A stretch of 64,000 nt of DNA from Escherichia coli (GTDB taxonomy: Bacteria; Pseudomonadota; Gammaproteobacteria; Enterobacterales; Enterobacteriaceae). Shown piece after piece: positions 2,908 to 60,386 of the stretch. The notes under the pieces were generated by a model. The model was not told the DNA's origin. It worked only from the letters and a program-made list of their open reading frames with translations, and ran no database searches. Numbering within the stretch: position 1 is the first letter of the stretch; each line of letters begins with the position of its first letter. The translations under genes were made by a program, and so were the position numbers. Location of the stretch: assembly GCF_041886205.1 (NCBI RefSeq), contig NZ_CP169029.1. One strand, given 5' to 3'.

Positions 2908-3942
2908 ATGGCTTACTCTGTTCAAAAGTCGCGCCTGGCAAAGGTTGCGGGTGTTTCGCTTATTTTATTACTCGCTGCCTGTAGTTCTGACTCACGCTAT
3001 AAGCGTCAGGTCAGTGGTGATGAAGCCTACCTGGAAGCGGCACCGCTTGCGGAGCTTCATGCCCCGGCTGGAATGATTTTGCCGGTGACCTCCGGTGATT
3101 ATGCAATCCCGGTGACCAACGGTAGTGGTGCTGTCGGTAAGGCGCTGGACATTCGTCCACCAGCCCAGCCGCTGGCACTGGTTTCTGGCGCGCGTACCCA
3201 GTTCACGGGCGATACCGCTTCATTGCTGGTGGAAAATGGTCGTGGCAATACTCTGTGGCCGCAGGTGGTTAGCGTGCTGCAGGCGAAAAACTACACCATC
3301 ACCCAACGTGATGATGCTGGTCAGACACTGACAACCGATTGGGTACAATGGAACCGTCTGGACGAAGACGAGCAGTATCGTGGTCGTTATCAAATCTCTG
3401 TTAAGCCGCAGGGTTATCAGCAGGCGGTTACGGTTAAACTGCTGAACCTGGAACAGGCGGGCAAACCGGTTGCAGACGCGGCTTCCATGCAGCGTTACAG
3501 CACGGAGATGATGAACGTTATTTCCGCCGGTCTGGATAAATCTGCCACTGACGCCGCGAACGCTGCGCAAAATCGTGCCTCCACCACTATGGACGTACAA
3601 AGTGCAGCTGATGACACCGGTTTACCAATGCTGGTCGTACGCGGGCCGTTCAATGTGGTTTGGCAACGTCTGCCAGCGGCGCTGGAAAAAGTGGGCATGA
3701 AAGTGACCGACAGCACCCGTTCGCAGGGCAACATGGCCGTAACTTATAAGCCGCTGTCTGACAGCGACTGGCAGGAACTGGGCGCGAGCGATCCAGGCCT
3801 GGCATCCGGTGACTATAAACTGCAGGTTGGCGATTTAGATAACCGCAGTAGCCTACAGTTCATCGATCCGAAAGGTCATACTCTGACTCAGAGTCAGAAC
3901 GACGCGCTGGTAGCTGTCTTCCAGGCTGCGTTTAGCAAGTAA
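2908..3942 (+). CDS. bamC: Outer membrane protein assembly factor BamC (lipoprotein NlpB)
   Basis: [27 protein letters not shown] lipoprotein signal peptide with LAAC lipobox; recognised BamC; ATG at 2908 preceded by GGGAGA. Confidence 0.92.
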
Positions 3943-11027: not shown

Positions 11028-11061
11028 AAAAAGGCGACACATTGGCATGTCGCCTTTTTTA
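11028..11061. terminator. Bidirectional rho-independent terminator (ypfM / acrD)
   Basis: AAAAAggcgaca-cattggca-tgtcgccTTTTTT; A-run and T-run flank the stem, so functional on both strands; acrD stop is at 11066. Confidence 0.75.
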
Positions 11062-23392: not shown

Positions 23393-25672
23393 ATGGATGA
23401 CCAGTTAAAACAAAGTGCACTTGATTTCCATGAATTTCCAGTTCCAGGGAAAATCCAGGTTTCTCCAACCAAGCCTCTGGCAACACAGCGCGATCTGGCG
23501 CTGGCCTACTCACCAGGCGTTGCCGCACCTTGTCTTGAAATCGAAAAAGACCCGTTAAAAGCCTACAAATATACCGCCCGCGGTAACCTGGTGGCGGTGA
23601 TCTCTAACGGTACGGCGGTGCTGGGGTTAGGCAACATTGGCGCGCTGGCAGGCAAACCGGTGATGGAAGGCAAGGGCGTTCTGTTTAAGAAATTCGCCGG
23701 GATTGATGTATTTGACATTGAAGTTGACGAACTCGACCCGGACAAATTTATTGAAGTTGTCGCCGCGCTCGAACCAACCTTCGGCGGCATCAACCTCGAA
23801 GACATTAAAGCGCCAGAATGTTTCTATATTGAACAGAAACTGCGCGAGCGGATGAATATTCCGGTATTCCACGACGATCAGCACGGCACGGCAATTATCA
23901 GCACTGCCGCCATCCTCAACGGCTTGCGCGTGGTGGAGAAAAACATCTCTGACGTGCGTATGGTGGTTTCCGGCGCGGGTGCCGCAGCAATCGCCTGTAT
24001 GAACCTGCTGGTAGCGCTGGGTCTGCAAAAACATAACATCGTGGTTTGCGATTCAAAAGGCGTTATCTATCAGGGCCGTGAGCCAAACATGGCGGAAACC
24101 AAAGCCGCATATGCGGTGGTGGATGACGGCAAACGTACCCTCGATGATGTGATTGAAGGCGCGGATATTTTCCTCGGATGTTCCGGCCCGAAAGTGCTGA
24201 CCCAGGAAATGGTGAAGAAAATGGCTCGTGCGCCAATGATCCTGGCGCTGGCGAACCCGGAACCGGAAATTCTGCCGCCGCTGGCGAAAGAAGTGCGTCC
24301 GGATGCCATCATTTGCACCGGTCGTTCTGACTATCCGAACCAGGTGAACAACGTCCTGTGCTTCCCGTTCATCTTCCGTGGCGCGCTGGACGTTGGCGCA
24401 ACCGCAATCAACGAAGAGATGAAACTGGCGGCGGTACGTGCGATTGCAGAACTCGCCCATGCGGAACAGAGCGAAGTGGTGGCTTCAGCGTATGGCGATC
24501 AGGATCTGAGCTTTGGTCCGGAATACATCATTCCAAAACCGTTTGATCCGCGCTTGATCGTTAAGATCGCTCCTGCGGTCGCTAAAGCCGCGATGGAGTC
24601 GGGCGTGGCGACGCGTCCGATTGCTGATTTCGACGTCTACATCGACAAGCTGACTGAGTTCGTTTACAAAACCAACCTGTTTATGAAGCCGATTTTCTCC
24701 CAGGCTCGCAAAGCGCCGAAGCGCGTAGTTCTGCCGGAAGGGGAAGAGGCGCGCGTTCTGCATGCCACTCAGGAACTGGTAACGCTGGGACTGGCGAAAC
24801 CGATCCTTATCGGTCGTCCGAACGTGATCGAAATGCGCATTCAGAAACTGGGCTTGCAGATCAAAGCGGGCGTTGATTTTGAGATCGTCAATAACGAATC
24901 CGATCCGCGCTTTAAAGAGTACTGGACCGAATACTTCCAGATCATGAAGCGTCGCGGCGTCACTCAGGAACAGGCGCAGCGGGCGCTGATCAGTAACCCG
25001 ACAGTGATCGGCGCGATCATGGTTCAGCGTGGCGAAGCCGATGCAATGATTTGCGGTACGGTGGGTGATTATCATGAACATTTTAGCGTGGTGAAAAATG
25101 TCTTTGGTTATCGTGATGGCGTTCACACCGCAGGTGCCATGAACGCGCTGCTGCTGCCGAGTGGTAACACCTTTATTGCCGATACATATGTTAATGATGA
25201 ACCGGATGCAGAAGAGCTGGCGGAGATCACCTTGATGGCGGCAGAAACTGTCCGTCGTTTTGGTATTGAGCCGCGCGTTGCTCTGTTGTCGCACTCCAAC
25301 TTTGGTTCTTCTGACTGCCCGTCGTCGAGCAAAATGCGTCAGGCGCTGGAACTGGTCAGGGATCGTGCGCCAGATCTGATGATTGATGGTGAAATGCACG
25401 GCGATGCAGCGCTGGTGGAAGCGATTCGCAACGACCGTATGCCGGACAGCCCTTTGAAAGGTTCTGCCAATATTCTGGTGATGCCGAACATGGAAGCTGC
25501 CCGCATTAGTTACAACTTACTGCGCGTTTCCAGCTCGGAAGGTGTGACTGTCGGTCCGGTGCTGATGGGCGTGGCGAAACCGGTTCACGTGTTAACGCCG
25601 ATCGCATCGGTGCGTCGTATCGTCAACATGGTGGCGCTGGCCGTGGTTGAAGCGCAAACCCAACCGCTGTAA
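23393..25672 (+). CDS. maeB: NADP-dependent malic enzyme
   Basis: 759 aa; N-terminal malic enzyme domain plus C-terminal phosphotransacetylase-like domain; recognised MaeB. Confidence 0.93.
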
Positions 25673-25689
25673 TTCTTTTTTAACTCTCA

Positions 25690-25717
25690 CGCTTACCCTG
25701 AATATTCAGGGTAAGCG
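25690..25717. other. 28-bp perfect palindrome downstream of maeB (possible terminator hairpin or operator)
   Basis: cgcttaccctgaatattcagggtaagcg is its own reverse complement; T-run lies 5' of it rather than 3'. Confidence 0.5.
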
Positions 25718-25964
25718 GTTTGGCTGCAATATATTAGTAAAGCTTATTACTGAGTTTGCGAATAATAAAAAAAGCAGTCTATATAATATCTCGATATTAT
25801 TTTATTTATATTCATGCGTTGCATATGAAAGTTTATGCACCACAGCGAATATCTCTCCATTCTTAGTGATCTACCTCACCTTTTAAACGCGCTTGCCGAA
25901 TTTTGTTATTTACTCTGACGAAAAATTGTCACGATACACGAAAGTTTTTCACAGGCGGCGACTC
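25718..25964 (+). promoter_or_regulatory. eut operon main promoter region upstream of eutS
   Basis: AT-rich 250-bp gap immediately upstream of the first eut gene; position only, no site motif resolved. Confidence 0.4.
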
Positions 25965-26300
25965 ATGGATAAAGAACGCATCATTCAGGAATTTGTGCCC
26001 GGCAAACAGGTCACACTGGCGCATCTCATCGCGCATCCCGGTGAGGAACTGGCGAAGAAAATCGGCGTTCCGGATGCGGGCGCAATTGGCATTATGACGC
26101 TAACTCCCGGCGAAACGGCGATGATCGCCGGTGATTTAGCGCTGAAAGCCGCTGATGTGCATATCGGTTTTCTCGACCGATTCAGCGGTGCATTGGTGAT
26201 TTATGGCTCGGTGGGCGCAGTAGAAGAAGCGTTATCACAAACCGTCAGCGGTTTAGGTCGCTTATTAAATTATACGCTTTGTGAAATGACCAAAAGTTAA
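25965..26300 (+). CDS. eutS: Ethanolamine-utilisation microcompartment shell protein EutS
   Basis: 111 aa from [15 protein letters not shown]; BMC-domain protein; ORF track extends upstream. Confidence 0.88.
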
Positions 26301-26312
26301 TACGAGGCATTC

Positions 26313-26792
26313 ATGAAACGAATTGCGTTTGTGGGTAGCGTCGGGGCAGGAAAAACAACGTTATTTAATGCGTTGCAGGGGAATTATACCCTCGCCAGAA
26401 AAACACAGGCCGTGGAATTTAATGATAAGGGCGATATTGATACGCCGGGTGAATATTTTAACCATCCCCGCTGGTATCACGCCTTAATTACCACGCTACA
26501 GGATGTAGACATGCTGATCTATGTCCATGGCGCAAATGACCCGGAAAGTCGGTTGCCTGCCGGGTTGCTGGATATTGGCGTCAGCAAACGGCAAATCGCC
26601 GTCATCAGTAAAACGGACATGCCAGATGCTGACGTCGCCGCAACGCGAAAGTTATTGCTTGAGACGGGTTTCGAAGAGCCGATTTTCGAGCTAAACAGCC
26701 ACGACCCGCAAAGCGTGCAGCAACTGGTGGATTATCTGGCATCTCTCACCAAACAGGAGGAAGCAGGTGAAAAAACTCATCACAGCGAATGA
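26313..26792 (+). CDS. eutP: Ethanolamine utilisation protein EutP (P-loop GTPase/acetate kinase-like)
   Basis: 159 aa; Walker A GSVGAGKTT. Confidence 0.9.
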   Translation: MKRIAFVGSVGAGKTTLFNALQGNYTLARKTQAVEFNDKGDIDTPGEYFNHPRWYHALITTLQDVDMLIYVHGANDPESRLPAGLLDIGVSKRQIAVISKTDMPDADVAATRKLLLETGFEEPIFELNSHDPQSVQQLVDYLASLTKQEEAGEKTHHSE

Positions 26793-39849: not shown

Positions 39850-39894
39850 CCTGTCGGAGGTGCCGGGTGTCCTACAACACCCGGCATTAACATC

Positions 39895-57401: not shown

Positions 57402-57430
57402 AAAAATGGCGCCGATGGGCGCCATTTTTC
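57400..57430. terminator. Bidirectional rho-independent terminator (pdxK / crr)
   Basis: AAAAAAatggcgcc-gatg-ggcgccatTTTTT perfect stem flanked by A-run and T-run. Confidence 0.85.
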
Positions 57431-60355: not shown

Positions 60356-60386
60356 CAAAAAAGCACCTGAAAAGGTGCTTTTTTAC
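60356..60386. terminator. Bidirectional rho-independent terminator downstream of cysK
   Basis: AAAAAAgcacc-tgaaaa-ggtgcTTTTTT, about 20 bp past the cysK stop. Confidence 0.8.

Follow-up and report, generated by a model that had tools for sequence, protein, structure and literature searches.

The maeB-eutS intergenic region of E. coli contains a 28-bp sequence, CGCTTACCCTGAATATTCAGGGTAAGCG, that is exactly self-complementary, which raises the question of whether it acts as a protein-binding site in duplex DNA, as a structure in RNA, or not at all. A preliminary description of the 64,000-nucleotide stretch of DNA analysed here (the window) had proposed either an operator for a dimeric regulator or an RNase III/stability element. 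The perfect palindrome at positions 25690-25717 was confirmed and is the longest in the 64-kb window, the runners-up reaching 16 bp. Across 200 simulations under a first-order Markov model, the maximum palindrome length was 16.3 bp on average and 24 bp at most; the symmetry claimed in the preliminary description is exact and lies beyond chance. The sequence occurs once in the window even when three mismatches are allowed, shuffles giving an expectation of 0 matches.

A palindrome that arose by chance, or that belonged to a dispersed REP/BIME-like repeat, would have no local function, and several Enterobacter and Leclercia loci do carry REP elements in the region that follows maeB. However, the palindrome lies far beyond chance in both shuffles and Markov simulations, is present in one copy per genome and is kept across Escherichia species. 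Of 5,426 E. coli genomes, 5,409 have a 56-nt core that includes it, each at a single locus, the "2 places" counted per genome being the two strands of one palindromic site. Because it is single-copy in each genome, the palindrome is not a dispersed repeat, and we regard a functionless palindrome of either origin as having next to no probability. Membership in a REP/BIME-type repeat family, which implies many copies, was likewise rejected for a sequence unique in the window and confined to one locus in those 5,409 genomes.

The 441-bp region around the palindrome was matched in 5,423 of 5,426 complete E. coli genomes at 95-100% identity, and full coverage of the maeB-eutS intergenic region is missing in about 140 of the 5,423. 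In one strain, E. coli 19AR0656 (locus L003, NZ_CM132277.1, 3114-3880), IS1B lies directly past the maeB stop codon, at approximately window position 25668 onward, and a deletion beside it has removed the hairpin, the eutS promoter, eutS and the 5' part of eutP.

RNA from either strand of the palindrome folds into a 12-bp stem with a 4-nt loop, reproducing the structure first predicted for it. In an 81-nt context the predicted free energy is approximately -22 kcal/mol, with a z of -3.4 relative to shuffles; the 28-mer by itself, calculated on the identical sequence at locus L006, gives -20.4 kcal/mol. The stem is 50% G+C. The perfect dyad symmetry of the DNA is probably a by-product of a fully paired stem combined with a self-complementary AUAU loop, rather than a protein-binding feature. 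A scan of positions 25000-26500 against Rfam at a permissive E-value returned only chance-level matches (E at least 0.66, far under the gathering scores). The arrangement of the locus is given in the table below. A 17-nt spacer separates the maeB stop codon from the hairpin, which ends 248 nt before the eutS ATG at 25965, in agreement with the distance of about 250 bp given earlier, and approximately 290 nt of untranslated RNA would follow maeB in a transcript that continued to eutS.

Table. Features between the end of maeB and eutS in the window.
Feature	Position	Strand	Basis or remark
maeB CDS, 759 aa	23393..25672	+	ORF list; RefSeq annotation of identical or near-identical E. coli loci
maeB stop codon TAA	25670-25672	+	ORF list
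17-nt T-rich spacer TTCTTTTTTAACTCTCA, stop codon to hairpin	25673..25689	+	sequence; ortholog comparison
T-run TTCTTTTTT, 5' of hairpin	25673-25681	+	sequence
Stem 5' arm CGCTTACCCTGA	25690..25701	+	fold
Loop ATAT	25702..25705	+	fold; 3-6 nt and variable in sequence among Escherichia lineages
Stem 3' arm TCAGGGTAAGCG	25706..25717	+	fold
Degenerate U-tail GTTTGGCTG	25718..25726	+	sequence; K-12 homology puts maeB 3' ends at 25721-25725
AT-rich spacer, Escherichia only, hairpin to eutS promoter core; outside the hairpin element	25727..25859	.	intergenic comparison
Likely eutS promoter/leader core, conserved across genera	25860..25964	+	block common to Escherichia, Citrobacter, Klebsiella, Yokenella and Pseudocitrobacter
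CRP-like candidate site AGTGATCTACCTCAC within the eutS promoter core	25865-25879	+	resemblance to consensus

We then considered whether the hairpin has the features of an intrinsic terminator. A stable sense-strand stem-loop shortly past the maeB stop codon is present. A simple promoter and terminator scan of the window region around the palindrome nevertheless called nothing, and at the hairpin it failed solely on the T-count of the tail. The tail, GUUUGGCUG, has four U in nine positions, three of them consecutive, and does not amount to a U-rich tract; an upstream A-tract is also absent. The statement in the preliminary description that the T-run lies 5' of the palindrome on the plus strand is correct, as is its view that the element is not a canonical intrinsic terminator.

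Published maps of transcript ends in K-12 MG1655 were used to locate the 3' end of maeB RNA. In this genome the maeB stop codon occupies 2576100-098 and the 28-mer 2576081-2576054, and the tail reads G53 U52 U51 U50 A49 G48 C47 U46. TRS applied to RNAtag-seq data reports a "Primary" maeB 3' terminus with a dominant position at 2576046 and a peak at 2576046-2576054, with signal 1.0, rank 34 and adjusted p 0 in three LB RNAtag-seq libraries, and its table prints exactly the 28-mer hairpin as the fold for this terminus (PMC10687069). The meaning of the printed sequences was calibrated on the thrL row of the same table. A second dataset gives 2576048 as the dominant maeB terminus, and the maeB 3'UTR is listed as 53 nt long, with a ratio of 3'UTR to CDS read starts that is not an outlier and no TSS nearby (PMC10687069). 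With an ordinary read ratio and no TSS close by, nothing points to a separate sRNA from the maeB 3'UTR. SMRT-Cappable-seq, which captures full-length 5'-triphosphate transcripts, records b2463-only units that end at 2576049/50, with maeB TSSs at 2578443, 2578498 and 2578531; these entries are labelled novelTTS, that is, outside previously catalogued terminators (PMC6131387), and fall in two sections of the operon table, presumably two growth conditions. The K-12 3' ends thus lie 4-8 nt past the 28-mer, corresponding by alignment to window positions 25721-25725, the data being from K-12 and not from the strain of the window. It had been suggested that a clean maeB 3' end at the hairpin would reduce the palindrome to a non-canonical terminator, and such an end is present in the published K-12 data. 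No maeB or eutS entry was found in the curated Term-seq list of Adams et al. 2021, which thus gives no confirmation of this end, and no maeB entry in the TERMITe data or those of Dar & Sorek (PLoS Genet 2018).

Our principal conclusion, to which we assign a probability of roughly 0.86, is that the palindrome encodes the 3'-terminal stem-loop, or transcription terminator hairpin, of the maeB mRNA. In the proposed mechanism, the nascent RNA would fold into the 12-bp hairpin of roughly -20 kcal/mol after RNA polymerase passes the maeB stop codon, and maeB transcripts would end 4-8 nt past it, as has been shown for K-12. The hairpin would then block 3'-to-5' exonucleases, giving a sharp and stable 3' end, and would keep maeB transcription out of the inducible eutS promoter. 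We infer that the hairpin causes or defines the maeB 3' end.

Variation within Escherichia was examined in the hairpin and in its tail. The hairpin is retained across Escherichia species, with variation concentrated in the loop and at the stem apex and with a length that shifts from 28 to 29 nt. The window hairpin is CGCTTACCCTGA-ATAT-TCAGGGTAAGCG; that of K-12 is the same except for a final G to A change, which creates a terminal C·A and leaves a perfect palindrome of 26 bp. Strain MSB1_4I has CGCTTACCCTG-TTTATT-CGGGGTAAGCG, Escherichia sp. MOD1-EC7003 has CGCTTACTCTGGA-TTA-TTCGGGGTAAGCG (29 nt) and E. whittamii has CGCTTACCCTGA-GTAAT-TCGGGGTAAGCG (29 nt). The tails are more diverse: GTTTGGCTG in the window, GTTTAGCTG in K-12, GTCCAGCTG in two E. 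coli strains, GTTTTCCTG or GTTTTGCTG in other E. coli strains, GTTTTATTG in MOD1-EC7003 and ATTTTTATAT (also given as ATTTTTAT) in E. whittamii. The variants within E. coli begin GTTTGG, GTTTAG, GTCCAG, GTTTTC or GTTTTG, while those of the sister species are T-rich. The homologous hairpins of E. whittamii and MOD1-EC7003 pass the same terminator scan, on the + strand only, that the window hairpin fails, and the E. coli palindrome is therefore orthologous to a canonical intrinsic terminator, its own U-tract having decayed to GUUUGG, GUUUAG or GUCCAG.

The pattern of change in the stem also bears on whether the element acts as RNA or as DNA. Among eight distinct Escherichia sequences, 8 of the 12 stem pairs are invariant and three have changed on one side, always to G·U; 97.9% of stem cells remain paired, the exceptions being the terminal C·A of K-12 and an apical U·U in MSB1_4I. 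Changes of the G·U type keep the stem of the + strand RNA, break the dyad symmetry of the DNA and shift the spacing of the outer half-sites by 1 bp, and in RNA from the minus strand the same changes are C·A mismatches. This suggests a mode of variation compatible with an RNA hairpin formed in maeB mRNA and poorly compatible with a dimeric operator, although with approximately three favourable events against one unfavourable event (the K-12 terminal pair) the comparison is not significant. A covariation test on the eight sequences found zero two-sided changes and had no statistical power, the shuffles being uninformative.

The proposal that the palindrome is an operator, bound by a dimeric regulator of the eut operon or of maeB, draws on its perfect 28-bp dyad symmetry and on its intergenic position upstream of eutS. 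If this were the case, an inverted repeat of fixed spacing should be kept together with the promoter. From species-representative genomes we took 80 loci that encode the C-terminus of MaeB, and predicted the fold of the 90 nt past each stop codon. Outside Escherichia, eutS follows maeB at 18 of these (about 15 Citrobacter loci, K. oxytoca, K. pneumoniae, Yokenella and a Pseudocitrobacter MAG), and all 18 have the promoter core and lack the palindrome; the E. coli palindrome is absent from every locus outside Escherichia among the 80. At the same 18 loci a hairpin begins 14-20 nt past the maeB stop codon, and at 15 of them it is followed by 6-8 T in nine nt. These hairpins are usually GC-rich and unrelated to that of E. 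coli, for example GGCGCGGGTTTCTCCCGCGCC then TTTTTATTTT, and the Citrobacter hairpin is called a terminator by the simple scan. The two Citrobacter loci L017 and L018 have four T of nine after the hairpin, and in K. pneumoniae a U-less hairpin comes first and is followed by a second with a T-run. A T-rich spacer of similar length precedes the hairpin in other genera too (TTTCACTTTAATTAATTC). S. arizonae has a similar terminator after maeB, with no eutS found within 2.5 kb.

The spacing of the intergenic region shows the same separation between hairpin and promoter. In other genera it measures about 153-160 bp (158-160 in most Citrobacter), compared with 236-291 bp in Escherichia, and the terminator abuts an approximately 105-bp block that matches E. 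coli 25860-25964 (TTCTTAGTGATCYACYTCACCTTTTAAA...TTGCCGAATTTTGTTATTTAC...CACGAT... to the ATG). By this comparison it is the promoter core that travels with eutS; the palindrome does not, its place being set by where maeB ends. Its centre is also approximately 170 bp upstream of the conserved CRP-like site and 260 bp from the eutS ATG, the outer half-site spacing varies by 1 bp, the symmetry is broken by RNA-compatible changes, and the mapped RNA 3' ends already account for the palindrome. The motif string gave 0 matches in the text of our literature library. We therefore consider an operator very improbable, and the conservation across Enterobacteriaceae that a regulatory palindrome might have shown is lacking in the other genera that retain the eutS promoter core. 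A less likely elaboration of the 3'-terminal hairpin is that its double-stranded DNA has also been recruited for protein binding.

The conserved block itself, 25860-25964, is likely the eutS promoter with its EutR/CRP region. The CRP consensus is TGTGA-N6-TCACA, and the site at 25865-25879 is a CRP-like candidate by its resemblance to it. Together with a downstream block, TTGCCGAATTTTGTTATTTACTCTGACGAAAAATTGTCACGAT, the CRP-like sequence AGTGATCTACCTCAC is conserved from Escherichia to Citrobacter, Klebsiella and Yokenella. A simple scan found no match to the sigma-70 consensus in the block, and the literature examined on the EutR site gives no EutR operator sequence for comparison. The approximately 130 bp at 25727-25859 are very AT-rich, are found only in Escherichia and differ between Escherichia species; this segment could be a target for H-NS-type silencing of eut.

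Several further arrangements were observed downstream of maeB in other genera. K. pneumoniae ATCC 13883 (L015, 2971-3045) has its two hairpins in tandem: the U-less CGCGCGGATCCGTTTCCGCGCG+CAATATC stands at the offset of the E. coli palindrome, and the second is a canonical terminator, GGCAGGC...GCCTGCC+TTTTTAATT. In Citrobacter amalonaticus and Citrobacter sp. MGH106 (L017 2990-3200, L018 2990-3120), 125-210 bp are inserted between the maeB terminator and the eutS core, and the insertions have their ends in common (...CTCTAAATAATTC... and ...ACCTGTAATTT.A.GT.TGACG..T.TTTTTATTTC), pointing to a small element that is mobile or repeated. Where eut is not downstream of maeB (Enterobacter, Leclercia, Raoultella, Kluyvera), the stop codon is followed either by REP-like palindromes, GCCGGATAAGCGCAGCGCCATCCGGC, or by a terminator that belongs to a convergent gene (L046, L047, L057, L072 and others, about 2960-3040).

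The perfectly paired stem could also be read as a site for RNase III cleavage, or as some other endonucleolytic processing or regulatory hairpin, in a transcript reading through from maeB into eut, and in SMRT-Cappable-seq data E. coli transcripts commonly continue past termination sites (PMC6131387). Against this reading, the recorded maeB transcripts are monocistronic and end past the stem rather than inside it, and a 12-bp stem is short. RNase III typically requires about two helical turns. A literature search for maeB with RNase III returned nothing relevant, and we give processing of this kind scarcely any weight, slightly less than an operator. Of the RNase III/stability element proposed at the outset, the stability part stands, as a 3'-terminal stem-loop guards against 3' exonucleases, and the RNase III part does not.

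If the palindrome is the 3'-terminal hairpin of maeB, it remains to consider how transcription ends there. The ancestral role of the hairpin appears to be intrinsic termination, because sister Escherichia carry a U-tract and an unrelated hairpin with a U-tract occupies the same position elsewhere. In E. coli, efficient intrinsic termination is doubtful given the poor tail in the window and GUCCAG in some lineages. Weak intrinsic termination at the hairpin is the likeliest mechanism, at slightly better than even odds, based on the ancestry of the element, the three proximal U and 3' ends located where intrinsic release is typical. Ends 4-8 nt past the stem are, however, equally expected from stalling of exonucleases.

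The other mechanism considered is Rho-dependent termination, in which polymerase would read through the hairpin, stop diffusely at Rho sites downstream in the maeB-eutS spacer, and leave an RNA that is trimmed back to the hairpin by PNPase/RNase II. Dar & Sorek 2018 described a class of stable stem-loops without a U-rich tail or upstream A-tract at Rho-dependent termini (PMC6061677), and the maeB hairpin has neither of these features. Its tail is not conserved within E. coli (e.g. GTCCAG), the approximately 290 nt past maeB are untranslated, and a zone in which C exceeds G is found at 25818-25935 (20-23 C vs 9-12 G per 78 nt). Conversely, the first 100 nt or so past the hairpin are C-poor (8-9 C vs 8-13 G per 78 nt); in the class described by Dar & Sorek, rut sites lie directly downstream (PMC6061677). 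The orthologs bear proper U-tracts, and neither maeB nor eutS appears in the bicyclomycin (Rho) table of Adams et al. 2021, which low coverage could explain. A literature search for maeB with bicyclomycin found nothing relevant. Rho-dependent termination is therefore a real but minority possibility, well short of even odds.

In the main E. coli lineages the U-tract is lost and the stem has A-U where divergent lineages have G·U, which makes a perfect 12-bp helix. Tentatively, and at somewhat long odds, the Escherichia maeB terminator may be in the middle of a switch from intrinsic termination to Rho or another factor, with the hairpin kept as a protector of the 3' end and an insulator of the eut promoter.

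Both the kind of element (a terminator or protective 3' stem-loop) and this instance of it, mapped in two published datasets, are already known, although the instance is not individually characterised. A striking palindrome beside the eut promoter is thus a routine 3'-end hairpin of the upstream gene, and there is no case for pursuing it as an operator: it is not kept with the eutS promoter, its spacing and symmetry vary, and RNA 3' ends map to it. As for eut itself, the inducible eutS promoter is probably shielded by the hairpin from transcription of maeB. The locus is also a clean example of U-tract decay inside a single genus with retention of both the hairpin and a sharply defined mRNA 3' end, and it illustrates that a hairpin may be rejected by terminator predictors based on the U-tract and yet mark where transcripts really end.

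Other stem-loops in the window provide a local reference. Perfect 12-bp stems flanked by an A-tract and a T-tract are found at 11028-11059, 57402-57429 and 60357-60384, and these are putative canonical terminators that may work in both directions; the ypfM terminator in the TRS table corresponds to the first. A further U-less hairpin is present at 39861-39886 (TGCCGGGTGT...ACACCCGGCA+TTAACATC).

Compared with canonical intrinsic terminators, such as those of maeB in Citrobacter and S. arizonae or of ypfM at 11028-11059, the E. coli maeB hairpin is likewise a stable stem-loop a few nt past a stop codon. It has RNA 3' ends 4-8 nt past the stem, and its 12-bp length and its energy are like those of bona fide terminators of the same window. 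It differs in its degenerate U-tract (4 of 9), in the absence of an upstream A-tract, in a stem that is only 50% G+C, and in a self-complementary loop that renders the whole element palindromic. With the protective stem-loops of Dar & Sorek (PMC6061677) it shares stability, the lack of a U-rich tail and A-tract, and a precise 3' end, but its immediate downstream sequence is C-poor and the bicyclomycin table of Adams et al. 2021 does not list maeB. With the inverted-repeat operators of dimeric transcription factors it shares perfect dyad symmetry in duplex DNA; unlike them, it is not kept with the promoter it would regulate, the spacing of its half-sites varies, its symmetry is lost by RNA-compatible changes, and it lies directly past a stop codon, where transcript 3' ends map.
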